44,556 nt of DNA from an uncultured Bacilli bacterium (GTDB taxonomy: Bacteria > Bacillota_I > Bacilli_A > RF39 > UBA660): positions 1 through 44,556 of the forward strand of contig CANQLL010000003.1 in assembly GCA_947624705.1 (NCBI GenBank), given 5' to 3'. Position 1 is the first letter of the stretch; every line of letters begins with the position of its first letter. The notes under the pieces were generated by a model. The model did not search any database, had not been told where the DNA came from, and saw only the letters and a list, made by a program, of their open reading frames with translations. The translations under genes and the position numbers were made by a program. This document shows positions 4,359 to 42,041 of this stretch, piece after piece.

Positions 4359-5387
4359 TTAGCAAGTTTTTTGTCTAACATATTTTAATTCATGATCTAA
4401 ACTTTCTTTGGAAAGCTTTGTTTTATCTAAAGTTTCTTGATATATATTATTAGCTTGTTCTTCTATTTTAAATATTGCTATATCTGCTAACATATATGTT
4501 TCTTGTTCACTACTTGTTAAATCATCTTTTAATCGTTCTTTCATCTCTTGAAATTGGGCTTTATCTTGTTCTAAAGCCGTTAATTGTTTATTACATTTTT
4601 CAATTTGCTTTTTAGTTGTCTCATAAAAATCATATGGTATTTTAAATTGAGCTATTTTTTCTTTTAATTCTTTTTCATCTTTAGGAAAAGTCTTTGAATC
4701 AAAAGTTAAATCACTTATATAAAGTAAATTTCTGTTCGAATTTTTATTACTACAATAGTGAAGAAGATAATTGGCATTTTGGAAAGAACAATTATATTGT
4801 CCTTCTTCTATTTCATCAAAATCATTATTATAAATAAATTTAATTTGGCCATCACTTAAAATTATATTTTGAGAATTTACAGTGCATGGTTGACTTAAAG
4901 CTTTTTTGAACATAACAATATATATCCATTCTAAATCTAAAACCTTATCTATATTTTTAATTTTAAGTAAATTGTTATAAATTAAATCTATACTAGCATA
5001 ATTTAATTTTAAATACTCAGCAAATGCTATATAATTTTGTAAAATTGTAATTGGTTCGACAACAAATTCTTTTAAAACATCTTGATAACTTAATTCTCTT
5101 AATATTTCTTTTTCAGTTAAAGCTATTTCTAAAGATATTGAATTTTTAATATTCTTAAATTTGTTCTTATTTATTAATTGTAAGATTGGGGTATTAATAT
5201 CATAAGCAGATTTTTCTAAATAATCTAATAAATATTTTAAATCTCTATCTTTTTTAGAAAAGTTTTTTCTTAAATATTTAATACTTTTAAAAAAATTCCC
5301 TAATTCAATTGTTTCAATTTCTCTATCTTTACTATCTTTTATTATTTTTGTTAAGGTTAAAGCTGTATTTATTCTGACTTCTATCAT
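4359..5387 (-). CDS. Hypothetical protein with C-terminal coiled coil
   Basis: 342-aa ORF with AGGAAG RBS; no family recognised. Confidence 0.75.
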   Translation of the reverse strand: MIEVRINTALTLTKIIKDSKDREIETIELGNFFKSIKYLRKNFSKKDRDLKYLLDYLEKSAYDINTPILQLINKNKFKNIKNSISLEIALTEKEILRELSYQDVLKEFVVEPITILQNYIAFAEYLKLNYASIDLIYNNLLKIKNIDKVLDLEWIYIVMFKKALSQPCTVNSQNIILSDGQIKFIYNNDFDEIEEGQYNCSFQNANYLLHYCSNKNSNRNLLYISDLTFDSKTFPKDEKELKEKIAQFKIPYDFYETTKKQIEKCNKQLTALEQDKAQFQEMKERLKDDLTSSEQETYMLADIAIFKIEEQANNIYQETLDKTKLSKESLDHELKYVRQKTC

Positions 5388-10734: not shown

Positions 10735-13128
10735 CTATTTGATATTGATTGGATTATCTACTTCACCCGTACCGGAATATGTTAGATTATCAGTTTTTAG
10801 ATTGATAACTGGCACCACGGCTCCGATATCATTATTGGCACTGACGTAGCTTAAGGAACCTGGAGTGCTAGCATCTAACACATAAACATGGCTATTAGAA
10901 TTGTTAGGCGAGGCCGTCCAATAACCATAACTTCTTCTTAAATAATTTTGCTCGGATGCATAAGTATTATATGATAATCCTCCCATTGCTAGTTCATCAG
11001 CTGTTATTAAGCCTATTTTACTTTTATATAGTCCCCCATATGTTCTTGATTGTTTATTTTTATTTACTTGTTCCGGACATACCAGGGTTGGGGTTACATT
11101 TGTTGAATTTGAAACTAATCTCTGGTACGCTCCATAATATAAAGTTGACGTTGAACTTGTATTATCTACTCCACTTCCATAACTAATATCATTACAAAAT
11201 AAACCATATGCTATTTGTTCATCATATTCATTTAAATTTGTTTTATACCACTCTTCTAAGGCATTTTTGATTGTACTATTTGTTCCTCCATTTTCATTTG
11301 TAAAAGTTTTTGTTCCTTTATTATATGTTACTTGACACGGGGAATTTATTGGACATGAATTTCCTCCACTGGTATAGCCTACTTTTTCATGTTCAGGTGT
11401 TGATGACTGCCAAGTATAATAATTATATTTTGAATTATTTGTTAATTTATCTTTTAACATTAATCGGACTGTTCCGTCCCCATTGACTCTTAGAATGCGC
11501 CATTCTTGGTCACCAAATTTGACATAGTTATTATCTACTTGACCTCGGAAGATATAACTTGTTCCACTATCATCTTGAGTGGCGTACAATCCACTTCCCG
11601 CTTTTATTTGGGCATCTGTTAAACTTTCACCTTCTGGTGGAAATCCTTTTGTGAAGTCAGGGTTGGTTACTTTTGGATAATTGGCTATTATCCATTCATT
11701 TAATTTCATTCTTTTAAAATTGACTGTACACTCTGTATCTTTACTTGGACTAGTTATGGTTAATGTATTATTTGCTTCATTATAACTTCCATTTTGTCCA
11801 TTTGTACATGTTACTCCTTTACTTGAATCATATACATAGCCAGAATTTGGATATACTTTCATTGTTGCCGTTGTTTTATAATCTGTTGTTTTAGTAATGT
11901 TTTCTCCTTCACTTATTACATATGGACTGCCGCTACTTCCACTTCCTGTTGCCATTACATCGGCTTTTAAATTGATAACTGGCCGCACTCCGCTAGAAGT
12001 ATTATTGACAGTAACGTCGTAAAGGTAGCCACTGTTGCCGCGAAGAACATAAGCATTGCCACTACTGAAGTAGTAAGGCGACAGGCCCCACCATGGAACA
12101 CCCTTATATAAATAATTACTACTTAAAGCATATGGACTACTATAAGCAAATCCTGCATAATTCATCTCATCAGCACTTAATAAACCTATCTTTAATTTAT
12201 ATAATCCTCCATAGGTATGATATCTTGTTCCATTTACTGTTGTGGTGTCTGTATTTGAGTAACCTGTCCCTGCTGTCGGATTTGGACATATTAAAGTGGG
12301 TTGCCCATATTTTGATGAACTTTTATTTGCAACTCTTTCGTACGCTCCATAATATGTAGTACTTGCTTCACTTCCACTTGCAAAACTAGTGTCATTACAA
12401 TATGTTCCATAGGCTATTTTACTATCATAATTTCTTAAATTATTATAATACCATGTCTCTAATTGTGTTTTTACATTACTATTTGTTCCTCCATAAGTAT
12501 TACTAAAGGTTGCACTATTATTATATGTACTTTGACATGGACTACTTGTTGTACACGGAGTGCTATTATTATATGTATAACCTGTGTACATTCGAGCATT
12601 AGATGAATTATTAAATGTATAGCCACCTATATTTTCATCTAATATGATTCTTATTGTTCCATCTCCATTTATTCGCACTATTCTCCATGTCTTTTCGGCA
12701 AATTTTACATAATTATTAACATTTCCTCTAAAGTAATAACTTGTTCCAGTTTCATCAGAAGTACTAAATAAGCCACTTCCTCCAACACTATTTCCACTTG
12801 CGGGTGGTTCTCCTATGGTGAAATCTGGGGTTACGGTTTTAAGAGTATTATTTTTTAATATTTTATCTACTAAACTTCCCTCTACATATCCATTATTTGC
12901 TTTAACATTTATTTTTATTTTTTTACTAGCAGTTGTTTTAAATGCTGAATATCTTCCTGAGGAAAAGGAATACATAGCCATACTTCTATAAATAAATATA
13001 CTTAATATTGCTACTCCTATAATACTAAACATTGTTACATATTTAAATTTTTTGCTATGTATTCCTTTTCCCTGAACTTTTTTTAATTCTTTTTTATAGT
13101 TAAATGGTTTTAACTTTATTTTCTTCAT
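10735..13128 (-). CDS. Membrane-anchored surface protein with two tandem CLec-like (DUF6273-like) domains and an Ig-like linker
   Basis: N-terminal basic stretch plus TM. The domain YxFRGxVxNNYVKF..WRI.R.NGDGT.R...GGLYKxKIGL..ADE...W..SP...VxPVINLK occurs twice. The fold call is inferred from the W..SP...GVRP end. Confidence 0.7.
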   Translation of the reverse strand: MKKIKLKPFNYKKELKKVQGKGIHSKKFKYVTMFSIIGVAILSIFIYRSMAMYSFSSGRYSAFKTTASKKIKINVKANNGYVEGSLVDKILKNNTLKTVTPDFTIGEPPASGNSVGGSGLFSTSDETGTSYYFRGNVNNYVKFAEKTWRIVRINGDGTIRIILDENIGGYTFNNSSNARMYTGYTYNNSTPCTTSSPCQSTYNNSATFSNTYGGTNSNVKTQLETWYYNNLRNYDSKIAYGTYCNDTSFASGSEASTTYYGAYERVANKSSSKYGQPTLICPNPTAGTGYSNTDTTTVNGTRYHTYGGLYKLKIGLLSADEMNYAGFAYSSPYALSSNYLYKGVPWWGLSPYYFSSGNAYVLRGNSGYLYDVTVNNTSSGVRPVINLKADVMATGSGSSGSPYVISEGENITKTTDYKTTATMKVYPNSGYVYDSSKGVTCTNGQNGSYNEANNTLTITSPSKDTECTVNFKRMKLNEWIIANYPKVTNPDFTKGFPPEGESLTDAQIKAGSGLYATQDDSGTSYIFRGQVDNNYVKFGDQEWRILRVNGDGTVRLMLKDKLTNNSKYNYYTWQSSTPEHEKVGYTSGGNSCPINSPCQVTYNKGTKTFTNENGGTNSTIKNALEEWYKTNLNEYDEQIAYGLFCNDISYGSGVDNTSSTSTLYYGAYQRLVSNSTNVTPTLVCPEQVNKNKQSRTYGGLYKSKIGLITADELAMGGLSYNTYASEQNYLRRSYGYWTASPNNSNSHVYVLDASTPGSLSYVSANNDIGAVVPVINLKTDNLTYSGTGEVDNPINIK

Positions 13129-15218: not shown

Positions 15219-15247
15219 TTGACTTTCTTTATGCAAATAAATATAAT
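15219..15247 (+). promoter_or_regulatory. SigA promoter (duplicated at 15978-16006)
   Basis: TTGACT-N17-TATAAT in both repeat copies; the TTG used as start in the ORF track is this -35 box. Confidence 0.8.
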
Positions 15248-15272
15248 AATAATCACTAGAAATGAGGTATTT

Positions 15273-15941
15273 ATGATAAATTATAATTTTTTTAAGAATA
15301 ATAAATCTAAATTAGTAGCTTGTAGCTTAGCAGGGATAATGTCATTAGGAATTTCAAGTTGTAATGATAAAACTAAAGAAACAGATGCAAAGACGCCTAC
15401 GGAAAGAGTCGAGATTACAAAATTTTTTGATGTAGGAAAGCACATTATTTCTGAACCTATTGAATATAGCACTGCCAACATTAGGCAATATCATAATCAT
15501 CCAGGATATAAATGTGTTGATATAACGTTGGGTGATGGAAAATTTTACCATAGTGCTTTACTCTTTATTAATGATTATCCCGTTGATGTCAAACCAACCC
15601 TTAAAAATCAGACGTTAAATTATAATAATTTTGGTACTCCTCGAAATTATTCCGTAGTTGAAAAAAGTATAACAAATAATTGCAAAGAATTTTTACCAGG
15701 TGAACATATTTTGTTAGTCCATTTAGAGGACAAAAATATTCAAAACAACCAAATTTTTGAAACTTATGATGGTTATGAAATTATGGGTATAAGCTATGCA
15801 TCTAATTGGAATCCGATAGTTTTATATGTAAACAAAGAAAATGTTATTTGCGAAATAACTGGTTATGATAAAAACAATAATCCTGAATTTTTAAAGTTTG
15901 GTACTCCAGTTGAACAAGAAAAAACTTTAACTTTAAAATAA
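15273..15941 (+). CDS. Lipoprotein, two-domain member of the tandem family
   Basis: GAGGT RBS then ATG at 15273; lipobox ISSC; internal domain duplication. Confidence 0.82.
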   Translation: MINYNFFKNNKSKLVACSLAGIMSLGISSCNDKTKETDAKTPTERVEITKFFDVGKHIISEPIEYSTANIRQYHNHPGYKCVDITLGDGKFYHSALLFINDYPVDVKPTLKNQTLNYNNFGTPRNYSVVEKSITNNCKEFLPGEHILLVHLEDKNIQNNQIFETYDGYEIMGISYASNWNPIVLYVNKENVICEITGYDKNNNPEFLKFGTPVEQEKTLTLK

Positions 15942-16028
15942 CTACCTTTTTAGGAAGTTATTTTATTTTTAAAAAGATTGACTTTCTTTATCCAAATAAA
16001 TATAATAATCACTAGAAATGAGGTATTT

Positions 16029-16700
16029 ATGATAAATTATAATTTTTTTAAGAATAATAAGTCTAAATTAGTAGCTTGTAGTTTAGCAGGAATTATGTCT
16101 TTAGGAATTTCAGGTTGTAATGATAAAACTAAAGAAACAGATACAAAGACGCCTATAGAAACAGTTGAAAATACAAAGCTTTTTGATGTTGGAAAGCATG
16201 TTGTTTCTGAACCTATTGATTATGATACTGCCAATATTAGGCAATGCCATAATCATCCGGGATATAAATGTATTGATATAACTTCGTCAGTTGGATTTTC
16301 TTTTAACTATAGTACTTTAATCTTTATTAATGATTACCCTGTTGATGTCAAACCAACACTTAAAGATAAGACCTTAAATTATAATAATTTTGGTACACCT
16401 CAAAATTATTCCGTAGTTGAAAAAAGTATAACAAATAATTGCAAAGAATTTTTACCAGGTGAACATATTTTGTTAGTCCGTTTAAAGGATAAAAATATTA
16501 AAAACAACCAAATTTTTGAGGCTTATGATGGTTATGAAATTATGGGTGTAAGCTATGCAAATAATTCTGATCCGATAGTTTTATATGTAAACAAAGAAAA
16601 TGTTATTTGTGAAATAACTGGTTATGATGAAAATAATAATCCTGAATTTTTAAAGTTTGGTACACCAGTTGAACAAGAAAAATCTTTAACTTTAAAATAA
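16029..16700 (+). CDS. Lipoprotein, close paralog of the preceding gene
   Basis: GAGGT RBS then ATG at 16029; lipobox ISGC; near-identical C-terminal half. Confidence 0.82.
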   Translation: MINYNFFKNNKSKLVACSLAGIMSLGISGCNDKTKETDTKTPIETVENTKLFDVGKHVVSEPIDYDTANIRQCHNHPGYKCIDITSSVGFSFNYSTLIFINDYPVDVKPTLKDKTLNYNNFGTPQNYSVVEKSITNNCKEFLPGEHILLVRLKDKNIKNNQIFEAYDGYEIMGVSYANNSDPIVLYVNKENVICEITGYDENNNPEFLKFGTPVEQEKSLTLK

Positions 16701-38355: not shown

Positions 38356-39909
38356 TTATGTCGTATTTTTAAATGTAAATATAATATCTATCCTTTTATC
38401 TTGATAGATATAAATTTTTTCTACTAAATTTATGATTAATTCTCTTGATAGATTTTCAATTGATAAAAATTTATCAATGTATTTTTCTATTTTTTTATTA
38501 TCTATTTTATTTGATTCTTGATTTTTTAATTTAGCAATATTTTTTTGATTATCTTCTATTTCTTTTTTGATATTTTTCCTTATTCTTAAATATTGTGATT
38601 CATCAATAAAACCTTTTAATCTATCCATATAAGTTTTATCTAAATTTTCAGTTAGTTTATTATTTGTAAGTTCTAAACTTTCAATTTGTTTTTTTATTTT
38701 TAAATTGTTGTCTGCAAATTTTATATTTCCTATAGAATCTTTTATTTTCTTTTTATCAAGGTACTTCTTACAAACATCTTTAATATTATCTAAAATAACA
38801 CGCTCTAATGTTTCATAATTATTTGTATGAGTAGTACAAACATGATACTTTGAGTAAGTTCTATAATAATTGCAAGTAGTATAACTTCTACCTGTTTTAT
38901 TTTGATATCTTATCGTTATTCGATGTTTACAATCTCCACAATATAAAAGGCCATCTAATAAATAAAATCTTTTTTTCTCTGGTCTTTTTACATTTTTAGG
39001 AAGAAGAGTTTGAACATAATTAAAAGTATCTCTATCTATTATAGCTTCATGAGTATTTTTTACAATGATATAGTCTTTAGGATTATTTTTAACTGTCTTT
39101 TTTAATTTATAATTAATCTTTTTAGTTTTTCCTTGTACTGAATCTCCCACGTAGATTTGATTAGTTAAAATTGCTTTTATTGTTGTATCAACCCATACAC
39201 CAAGTTCTTTTGAAATACATTTACTACTCTTTGTATTCCATACATAATTGTAGTAAGATGCTGGTGTTTTAATTTTTCTTTTGGTTAATTCTTGGGCTAT
39301 GTAATGATAAGTATTGCCTTTTAACGCTAAATCGAAGATTAATCTAACGGTCTTTGCTTGTTCTTCATTTATTATTAGATGATTTTTATTATTTGGATCT
39401 TTCATATAGCCAAAAGGACATCTACCTGATACATATAAACCATCTTTCATTCTTGAATGTAAACTAGACTTTACTTTTTTAGAAATATCTTTGGCATACA
39501 TATCATTCATTATGGCCTTAAAAGGTGCTATATCATTATTGGTATTATCTATGAATGTATCTATTCCATCATTGATAGCAATATATCTTATATTATTGTT
39601 GGGAAAATATTTTTCTATTAACTCGCCGGTGCCGATATAATCACGACCCAATCTTGACATATCTTTAGTAATAATCATATTTATTTTATTATTTTCTATA
39701 TCTTTAATCATTTTCTTAAAAGCTGGTCTTTCAAAATTAGTGCCAGTAAATCCATCATCCACATATTCATCAATAACATTATAATTATTTTCTTTAACAT
39801 ATTGATTAAGTAAACTTCTTTGACTAACAATACTATCAGATTCAATATTTCCATCATCTCTTGATAATCTTATATAAAGTCCGACTTTAAAACTATTATT
39901 GCCGATCAT
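38356..39909 (-). CDS. Large serine recombinase (resolvase, recombinase and Zn-ribbon domains)
   Basis: YIRLS catalytic Ser, Y.DDG.TGT.F.RP, KDMSRLGR, PFGY, IL.NQ.Y.G, HEAII, LLYCGDC...C...C. Confidence 0.96.
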   Translation of the reverse strand: MIGNNSFKVGLYIRLSRDDGNIESDSIVSQRSLLNQYVKENNYNVIDEYVDDGFTGTNFERPAFKKMIKDIENNKINMIITKDMSRLGRDYIGTGELIEKYFPNNNIRYIAINDGIDTFIDNTNNDIAPFKAIMNDMYAKDISKKVKSSLHSRMKDGLYVSGRCPFGYMKDPNNKNHLIINEEQAKTVRLIFDLALKGNTYHYIAQELTKRKIKTPASYYNYVWNTKSSKCISKELGVWVDTTIKAILTNQIYVGDSVQGKTKKINYKLKKTVKNNPKDYIIVKNTHEAIIDRDTFNYVQTLLPKNVKRPEKKRFYLLDGLLYCGDCKHRITIRYQNKTGRSYTTCNYYRTYSKYHVCTTHTNNYETLERVILDNIKDVCKKYLDKKKIKDSIGNIKFADNNLKIKKQIESLELTNNKLTENLDKTYMDRLKGFIDESQYLRIRKNIKKEIEDNQKNIAKLKNQESNKIDNKKIEKYIDKFLSIENLSRELIINLVEKIYIYQDKRIDIIFTFKNTT

Positions 39910-40098: not shown

Positions 40099-41955
40099 TT
40101 ATCTAATAATTTTGCCAATTTCTTCTATTCCACTTTGCATAGTATTCATTTTCTTTTGTTGCTCCTCAAGATTACTTATTATAACATTAATTTTTTTTAT
40201 ATCATTTGGATTAGTTGCTAATTTTTTTAACGTATATCCATCATTTATAAGCTTATTATTTATAACAATTAGCGTTGCAAGTTCTTTATCATCAATATAT
40301 CCGTCAGACATCATTATATGGTATGCTTCTTGAGCTTTATCTAATTTGTTTCTTAATTGTCCTATTAATCTAGAAAAATCTTTATCATTATTAATTTGAT
40401 TAATTTCTTTTTTTATTTCAGTTTGTTTTTGAGTTTTTATTTCAGAATGAAGTTTTTTATATTTTTCTTGGATCTCTGTTAAGATAATATTTTGTAATCT
40501 AATTTGCATTTCATTATGACTAAGTTCATAAATAGAACGAGTCATTATTTGCTCCAATTCATCTTCATTATTTAATGATTCGATTAGATAAGTTTCATTA
40601 TAAAATATTTCACCTATTAGCTGTTTCTTTTGTTCTTCAGACATTTGATTATTAGGATAGTATCTTTGTACTACTTTTATCATTTCATTAAAATAATAAT
40701 TAAAATCTTTCTTCTTTTTATCTTCTTGATTCATTTGAGAATATTTTTTAATATTGGCATTTTGATTGATATCAATTACTTGTTTTTCTCTTTCAATTAC
40801 CATGTTTTTTATATTAGAAATTATTTTATCTTGTTCAGTAATTAAATTAGGATTTTTAGTCATCTGATTATTAAATTCGGATATATAATTTTTAATCCTA
40901 GTAATATCAGTTTGTGTAAGATTAGGATTTTTTAAATCATGTGCAACTTTTTTTTGTAAACAGATAGTTAAAAATAAATCTAGCTTTTGAGATTCTTCTA
41001 ATGAAGATTCATTCTTTATTTTATTTAATGAATTAAGGATATTAAACATAGGCGGTTTACCTTGATATATTTTATCAGAAACCATTTTAAATTGATCAAA
41101 AAATTCATAGGCTACGATTGAATTTTCATACATTGCTTTAAAAGCTAAATTTTCGCCCATTACAATCTTCATCATTTTTCCATATGAAGTTATCTTATAA
41201 TTACTAGACTGATAATTATAAATATTCTTTTTAAAACCATTACCCATATTGTATAAGAATTGGGATTTATTAACACCAGTCACCCTAAGTGCCTCATCCT
41301 CATTAAAAATTTCATCAAGATATATCGCGTATGCATTTTTTGCATAGAAATCTCTTGCATCTTTACTTTTGTCATCTTTACGAATCACTTTCATACCTGC
41401 TTGTCTTATAGTTAACATTTCATTAGTAGATTGAAGTTTAAAATAATTGGGATACTTTGTATTTAGATTATTGATTAATTGTCTATATTTATTATCATCA
41501 TTTCCATACATCCCTTTAAATGATGTTTGCAAAGCATGACCTAATTCATGATTAAATACATTTAAAGATGCTTTTCTTAATGTCTCGTTATCCACATTAT
41601 GAATTCTATTTTGTAATTTATCCAAGGTTATATCTTCGATAAATTTATAATTCCCTATATATAGTGATTGGTCTTTTGAAGTATAAGCACCTTTAAGAGT
41701 ATTATCTTTATTATATGTTTGATCAAAATCATAATTTCTAATATTATTAACTAATCTATTAATGAAAAAATCTCCAATATCAGAACTATTTACAACTATT
41801 TTAGTCTCATTATTATTAAAATCAGGATTAACATTTTGATAGATTTTTACTCTTCTAATAATATTTTGCCTTATTAAATTAGCTTGCTCAGTACTTAAAT
41901 TATAAACTGACACTATTTCGTTAATTACAATATTAAGTTTTTTTTCAAAATTCAT
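40099..41955 (-). CDS. Element cargo: hypothetical protein with HExxH zinc-metallopeptidase-like motif
   Basis: VFNHELGHALQ plus a downstream LDEIFNEDEA helix; coiled-coil C-terminus; probable ATG at 41955 after AGGTGG. Confidence 0.7.
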   Translation of the reverse strand: MNFEKKLNIVINEIVSVYNLSTEQANLIRQNIIRRVKIYQNVNPDFNNNETKIVVNSSDIGDFFINRLVNNIRNYDFDQTYNKDNTLKGAYTSKDQSLYIGNYKFIEDITLDKLQNRIHNVDNETLRKASLNVFNHELGHALQTSFKGMYGNDDNKYRQLINNLNTKYPNYFKLQSTNEMLTIRQAGMKVIRKDDKSKDARDFYAKNAYAIYLDEIFNEDEALRVTGVNKSQFLYNMGNGFKKNIYNYQSSNYKITSYGKMMKIVMGENLAFKAMYENSIVAYEFFDQFKMVSDKIYQGKPPMFNILNSLNKIKNESSLEESQKLDLFLTICLQKKVAHDLKNPNLTQTDITRIKNYISEFNNQMTKNPNLITEQDKIISNIKNMVIEREKQVIDINQNANIKKYSQMNQEDKKKKDFNYYFNEMIKVVQRYYPNNQMSEEQKKQLIGEIFYNETYLIESLNNEDELEQIMTRSIYELSHNEMQIRLQNIILTEIQEKYKKLHSEIKTQKQTEIKKEINQINNDKDFSRLIGQLRNKLDKAQEAYHIMMSDGYIDDKELATLIVINNKLINDGYTLKKLATNPNDIKKINVIISNLEEQQKKMNTMQSGIEEIGKIIR

Positions 41956-42041
41956 TTGACTCACCACCTATAGTTATAATAACATTTTTCATAATTTTTA
42001 TTTTTTAAATATTCATTATTTCCCATAAAAACTGTATCCCC

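Follow-up and report, generated by a model that had tools for sequence, protein, structure and literature searches.

Diversity-generating retroelements (DGRs) rewrite the variable regions (VRs) of target genes from a template repeat (TR) by means of a reverse transcriptase (RT). Remote and several targets, internal and multiple VRs, diversification in trans and unequal activity have all been described before (PMC5758913, PMC6642488 and PMC10907252; statements on these and the other papers cited here extend as far as the excerpts of their text that were available). The DGR of Treponema denticola has seven non-adjacent targets, and the same survey describes a CLec1 target in which two of the three VRs are internal (PMC5758913). 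DGR 4 of Thiohalocapsa PB-PSB1 combines a three-VR target with diversification in trans (PMC10907252), and unequal VR activity inside one protein has been reported for multi-VR targets. In gut-phage 'tentaclins', modelling gave the DUF6273 domains a C-type-lectin fold whose surface hairpin carries the VR (PMC10743442). Here we describe a 44,556-nucleotide (nt) stretch of contig CANQLL010000003.1 (assembly GCA_947624705.1) from an uncultured bacterium of the RF39 lineage, called the window below. Its gene of interest is an open reading frame (ORF) of 797 amino acids (aa; 10735-13128, minus strand), a two-module member of a DGR-targeted family. What sets this gene apart is a pair of templates for a single protein.

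Each of the two modules closes with W-x-x-S-P and V-x-P-V-I-N-L, which enclose about 30 variable-looking residues. The internal variable region, VR1 (11979-12093, minus strand), is homologous to a template at 4682-4793 of contig C63, and the C-terminal one, VR2 (10809-10924, minus strand), to a second template on contig C27. A first-pass annotation, made from the letters of the window, had noticed 29 consecutive codons ending in C or T in the first of these tracts, 13 of them in C. The third-base string confirmed this run at aa 351-379 (11992-12078, minus strand), where C endings account for 13 of the 29 C/T-ending codons, compared to 89 of 798 codons in the whole gene. For a chance test, the protein sequence was kept fixed and synonymous codons were redrawn 20,000 times from the usage of 16 other ORFs of the window. 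A run of at least 29 C/T-ending codons occurred anywhere in the gene in 0.015% of the redraws, and none of them reached 13 C-ending codons at the 29 positions of tract 1 (2.4 expected). The weaker version that had been reported for domain 2 was also recovered: the longest C/T-ending runs of tract 2 were two of 9 codons (10882-10908 and 10825-10851), its C/T-ending codons were not enriched (22 of 29 vs. 21.4 expected), and its C-ending codons were (9 vs. 2.5 expected, P = 6e-4). The nucleotide anchors TCGCCT and GCCAGTTATCAAT, which the annotation had described as shared, were indeed found in both tracts; they are the 5' border (the S-P codons) and the end of the TR/VR homology with a target-specific flank.

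Contigs C7-C63 belong to the same assembly as the window (G000; 1.28 Mb, 89 contigs, 88% complete). A DNA search of this assembly with tract 1 returned a 77%-identical copy on contig C63, and a search with RVT_1 gave no match on the window's own contig and matches on C63 and C27 alone, in agreement with the earlier remark that no RT lies nearby. The 6.6-kb contig C63 carries, in this order, a cognate target of the family (512 aa, its VR lying at the C-terminal end, C63:4319-4432), the non-coding, AAY-rich template repeat TR1 (C63:4681-4793), a 112-aa ORF, and RT1 (C63:5436-6494; an intact 352-aa ORF with an RVT_1 match of 80 bits), which overlaps the 112-aa ORF. The cognate VR differs from TR1 at 20 positions, every one of them a template adenine (0 of 76 at other positions). 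Searching with TR1 led to a second template, TR2 (C27:16020-16132, minus strand), whose cassette likewise comprises a cognate target, an RT and an Avd-like ORF; here the cognate VR (C27:16324-16437) shows 16 adenine mismatches and 1-2 non-adenine ones. A near-copy differing at template adenines and lying beside an RT, as the first-pass annotation had anticipated, is therefore present twice, on C63 with TR1 and on C27 with TR2, where the RT is frameshifted. The C/T-ending codon run of the window gene is explained by these templates, as they consist almost wholly of NNY codons: 30 of the 37 codons of TR1 end in C or T, and the adenine-bearing variable codons (19 in TR1 and 20 in TR2) include none that can be converted to a stop. 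With such a design stop codons cannot arise, and each template has a coding capacity of about 10^21 protein variants.

The interval between TR and RT holds an ORF of 112 aa on C63 or 122 aa on C27. The match of the 112-aa ORF to the DGR Avd model NF033474 was weak (E = 0.0028, 17.9 bits vs. a cut-off of 80 bits), and a Pfam scan of the Avd-like ORF gave no match. Reading by eye, RT1 contains IGNLSSQ, which we take to be a DGR-type motif. RT2 (C27:14329-15379, minus strand) is split into ORFs of 178 and 180 aa by a 1-nt insertion relative to RT1, with which it shares 78% nt identity (830 of 1066 aligned columns). Despite the frameshift in RT2, in-register VRs are most numerous for TR2 in this genome; either the insertion is recent or an assembly error, or TR2 is served in trans by RT1. 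Both TRs are followed by a conserved 3' flank, CCAG directly joined to ATTCCTACTAA, and by further conserved blocks, and the identical flank also follows the TRs of related genomes. No consistent GC-rich inverted repeat was found after the VRs, with none behind either window VR. Two TR1-type targets (on C63 and C61) have an 8-bp inverted repeat, TATGAGGT...ACCTCATA with a 13-nt loop, across their stop codon; the one on C63 lies about 60 nt downstream of the VR, near 4491-4520. This repeat is missing behind both window VRs and behind most of the others. By its RT and its adenine-specific TR/VR pairs the system of this genome qualifies as a DGR, with a candidate Avd.

Each window tract was matched far better by one of the two templates than by the other. 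VR1 aligned to TR1 with a score of 132 and to TR2 with 33.5, and VR2 aligned to TR2 with 125 and to TR1 with 61; the TRs of five related genomes all fitted both tracts worse than TR1 and TR2. In VR1, changes relative to TR1 fell on 16 of 37 adenines vs. 8 of 76 other positions (Fisher p = 1.5e-4), and in VR2, relative to TR2, on 16 of 38 adenines vs. 10 of 75 other positions (Fisher p = 1.6e-3). In a codon-aware alignment the adenine changes were located at codon positions 1-2 in 17 of 17 cases for VR1 and 15 of 16 for VR2. VR1 thus appears to derive from TR1 on C63 and VR2 from TR2 on C27, judging from these alignments. Comparison with the closest paralog (C23:9899-12280) set VR1 apart as well: over aa 1-460 this paralog is mostly 84-98% identical to the window gene at the nt level, with 53-61% identity across VR1 and a lowest value elsewhere of 0.71, near aa 254, and its own tract lies much further from TR1 than VR1 does. 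Against five TR2-type paralogs, identity across VR2 was 0.58-0.70, the lowest or near-lowest part of each profile. Remote targets were assigned in the published survey with only minor exceptions to adenine-only differences (PMC5758913). The window VRs depart further from their templates, with 6-8 non-adenine changes in VR1 and 9-10 in VR2 across alignments and one extra codon in each. These data support the first-pass proposal of a remote DGR target (or its relic) that carries two diversifiable sites, one of which is internal, with the amendment that the two tracts have separate templates and that neither is in perfect register with its own.

The reading that we prefer, with a probability of about 0.6, is that the window VRs were written by the DGR and have since drifted, making them lapsed or rarely rewritten targets. 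Following the mechanism established for other DGRs and inferred here, the AAY-rich non-coding TR would be transcribed and the RT would copy the TR RNA, misreading adenines. The cDNA would then replace the VR between the 5' homology (TGG...TCGCCT) and a GC-rich 3' end (...GTGCGGCCAG or ...GTGGTGCCAG), beyond which targets continue with TTATCAAT and templates with ATTCCTAC. Mutagenic retrohoming of this kind would have written a VR at the end of each module of the two-module protein, and both VRs would have drifted from their templates afterwards, as parts of a graded series of paralogs from perfectly in-register to fully decayed.

Drift is favored by the nature of the changes in VR1, since five of its six non-adenine changes in the codon-aware alignment are synonymous and at third positions. 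It is also favored by the other VRs of the genome. The best-kept of these (on C63, C7:18390-18499, C18, C21:795-907, C27, C23:19397, C47 and C51:2679) have 0-3 non-adenine changes, compared to 7-9 in the window tracts, and, unlike both window VRs, no extra codon. The VR-like tracts as a whole grade continuously, reaching 27 non-adenine changes, and the window pair takes a mid-range position among them. All four two-module proteins have out-of-register VRs, those of the other three being more decayed than the window's. Furthermore, the non-adenine changes of the window VRs extend close to the 3' end, which counts against recent rewriting because every homing event should overwrite that part. 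Together, the extra codons and the 6-10 non-adenine changes fit a relic or seldom-rewritten target better than a freshly rewritten one.

Several observations weigh against this reading. In VRs treated as live, a survey of 372 DGRs recorded up to 11 non-adenine differences in one target and indels of 3 bp that mostly adjoin AAC runs, and ascribed such changes and indels to slippage or infidelity of the RT (PMC5758913). The window VRs fall within this published range and their extra codons adjoin AAY runs, so drift is not proven. The excess of third-position changes in VR1 is weak (p = 0.10), and the non-adenine changes in VR2 are mostly non-synonymous (6 of 9). With an assembly that is 88% complete, a better-fitting template could be missing. 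Finally, divergence around VR1 sets in about 60 nt upstream of where the TR homology begins, and paralog recombination may therefore have acted there too.

The window VRs could alternatively be live and rewritten in trans, each from its own template (TR1 for VR1, TR2 for VR2) and with RT1 perhaps acting on both templates; extra codons and changes outside adenines would then be non-canonical products of reverse transcription. We regard this as possible, though on the doubtful side. Both window VRs retain the GC-rich 3' end and the TTATCAAT flank, their extra codons lie beside AAY runs, where most 3-bp indels fall (PMC5758913), and VR1 is much nearer to TR1 than is the matching region of the near-identical C23 paralog. 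The conserved TR flanks and the 78% nt identity of the RTs also make it plausible that one RT uses both templates. However, the low load of 0-3 non-adenine changes without extra codons in other VRs indicates that the high load is specific to these targets rather than a general property of the RT. The silent third-position changes that make up five of the six in VR1 fit drift under selection better than RT error, and changes close to the 3' end should have been overwritten at every homing event.

It is improbable that the VRs are in register with further templates absent from the assembly, such as a TR with an extra AAY codon. The incompleteness of the assembly (88%) leaves room for such templates, a relative of the same genus (G001) has three TR-like copies, and the VR on contig C61 shares a 3-nt insertion near the place of the one in VR1; yet no better template was found in the assembly or among the TRs of the five relatives compared, and the search of the genome recovered two RT loci only. 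Most improbable of all is an origin of the tracts unrelated to DGRs, as a conserved family feature or codon quirk whose likeness to the TRs stems from paralogy or gene conversion: the anchors and the PVINL end are common to all family members, clearly decayed ones included, and divergence around VR1 already begins upstream of where the TR homology starts, but the mismatches concentrate significantly on template adenines and on codon positions 1-2, the templates are non-coding, AAY-rich and adjacent to Avd-like and RT genes with cognate VRs that differ (almost) only at adenines, and the excess of C endings is far above background codon usage.

Public sequence data were compared with the gene as well. 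In four public runs, the assembled contigs that matched it at 80% likeness were dominated by paralogs. One contig of 235 nt exactly matched 11950-12184, and contigs from two studies ended at 10810-10816; both observations could equally reflect shared paralog sequence or variation. The 90%-identity protein cluster of the window protein has one member, and the closest match to the gene among 40 related genomes was 76% identical over 414 nt.

Searching the genome with module 1 (phmmer) yielded 27 family ORFs amounting to 41.8 kb, or 3.3% of the assembly, of which four are two-module proteins of about 790-800 aa. BLAST detected 22 VR-like tracts (7 TR1-type, 15 TR2-type). Three TR1-type VRs (C26:18235-18344, C61:20-135 and C46:9845-9902) hold a contig end or lie about 20 nt from one, and have an identical 5' part followed by divergent sequence; the assembly seems to break at VRs. 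A two-module homolog from another sample (P0005, 790 aa) carries an identical 40-aa VR peptide in both modules. On a more speculative note, and with the doubt it deserves, the protein could be a surface protein with two hypervariable binding sites, written by two DGR templates and possibly by one RT acting in trans, with the 27-ORF series as a record of a 'diversify, duplicate, freeze' cycle.

The 797-aa protein starts with a basic N-terminus containing one hydrophobic segment, TMFSIIGVAILSIFIY (aa 32-47; 12988-13035, minus strand; read from the sequence), presumed to be a signal or membrane anchor. It is followed by module 1 (aa 95-392, about 300 aa; 11953-12846, minus strand). Next come a spacer of about 90 aa (11677-11952, minus strand; compared by eye), module 2 (aa 486-780; 10789-11673, minus strand), which is related to module 1, and a short tail closing the protein. 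By eye, the spacer retains the G-x-G...P-Y-V of the terminal tail of single-module family members, which suggests that the gene is a fusion of two single-module genes. Module 2 has 79-82% overall nt identity with five single-module TR2-type genes, one of which is the cognate target on C27.

Scans of the whole window protein against Pfam, PF19789 included, and NCBIfam gave no match. The last 116 aa of module 1 matched DUF6273 (PF19789) with E = 4e-4 and 20.7 bits, below the cut-off of 23.5 bits, which the paralog P0002 exceeded with 27.9 bits. Matches to DUF6273 at E <= 0.01 were obtained for 7 of 60 aligned homologs, and in a scan of the window's own genome one of nine matches was above the cut-off. 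By these scores the family is a distant relative of DUF6273 rather than a demonstrated member. By analogy, the window modules would adopt a C-type-lectin fold with the VR on the binding surface; the only matches of a profile search against PDB sequences were to stathmin, at chance level (E > 2).

The two-module protein is presumably exported or surface-anchored. Its first 100 aa matched neither an export signal nor a Peptidase_M73 or pilin-type domain. Among the 60 aligned homologs, Peptidase_M73 (camelysin-type) occurred in 11, InlB-B-repeat-like sequence in 11 and the pilin N-methylation motif in 2; in both members looked at, the Peptidase_M73 match was N-terminal, and homologs gave weak SipW/TasA-like N-terminal hints. 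The genome encodes a single archaeal-type (SipW-like) signal peptidase I (C22:20098-20604; TIGR02228, 104.9 bits), which might provide a possible export route for the family.

The window has a GC content of 20-32%, and the neighbors of the gene are ordinary chromosomal genes (encoding a PBP, MraW, phosphoglucomutase, a PpiC-type isomerase, acetate kinase, ThiI and IF-2). Two 240-aa ORFs without a Pfam match stand in tandem at 15219-15941 and 15978-16700 (both plus strand). A large serine recombinase with Resolvase, Recombinase and zinc-ribbon domains (38356-39909, minus strand) adjoins a 622-aa ORF without a Pfam match (40099-41967, minus strand), and the two may mark the edge of a mobile element.

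Family copies were present in all nine other genomes of the genus that were searched, and a relative of RT1 in six of the nine. In the single-contig genome G007 of the same genus, family copies were accompanied by no match to RT1. The three TR-like copies of G001 (L110, L111 and L114) occur with one RT match only. In a further relative (G006), eight more VR-like matches to its own TR were detected; a family ORF was readable in three of the eight, and those had 6-10 non-adenine changes. Genome collections contained 416 RT-related loci, of which the best 80 were mostly from metagenome-assembled genomes of uncultured gut Bacilli/Tenericutes. These best 80 yielded 37 adenine-specific TR/VR pairs, with the VR in a family ORF for 31 of the 37. 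A public protein collection held more than 2,594 family relatives, and a tblastn search for phage homologs matched no phage record.

On the speculative and doubtful reading of two hypervariable sites given above, diversification would be combinatorial and bispecific, with about 10^21 x 10^20.7 variants, and a gut bacterium with a reduced genome would store useful DGR-made variants as fixed paralogs. As this gene shows, a DGR target can be pinpointed from its codon endings in raw sequence even when it is remote, with template and RT situated on other contigs. By the account of a large metagenome survey, remote targets of this class would escape the approach used there (PMC8144416). Because the RT clade is widespread and 31 of the 37 VRs detected at its loci lie in the family, this lineage is a good place to study the gain, fusion and retirement of DGR targets, as well as the ligand of these proteins.

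We found no paper that joins a DGR with RF39, and no description, in the excerpts consulted, of one ORF with two VRs from two templates at two loci; full papers or supplements may list such cases. Compared with the DGR of Bordetella phage BPP-1 (Mtd, TR, Avd and Brt; PMC5758913), the present system has the same order of target-VR, TR, avd (here an Avd-like ORF) and RT, adenine-specific mismatches, and a cognate target whose C-terminus carries the VR. It differs in the lack of a GC-rich inverted repeat directly behind the VRs, in being cellular and in having many remote paralogous targets. As in tentaclins, the VR-bearing end is weakly similar to DUF6273; in contrast to them, the family is cellular, with modules of about 300 aa that have a Cys-containing middle part. 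The multi-VR targets CLec1 and that of Thiohalocapsa PB-PSB1 likewise have more than one VR per ORF and an internal VR whose 3' recognition sequence is also coding, but are described within one DGR locus, whereas two templates on two contigs are involved here. A further close likeness is to cellular DGRs with remote targets of the Treponema denticola type, which also have TR, accessory gene (here a candidate) and RT at one locus, AAY-rich templates, distant VRs differing mainly at adenines, a GC-rich end of the 3' homology and targets paralogous to the cognate one. Unlike that type, the present genome holds 22 VR-like tracts in 1.28 Mb that show graded decay instead of a clean adenine-only set, and two sub-types of one family each have a cassette with its own template.

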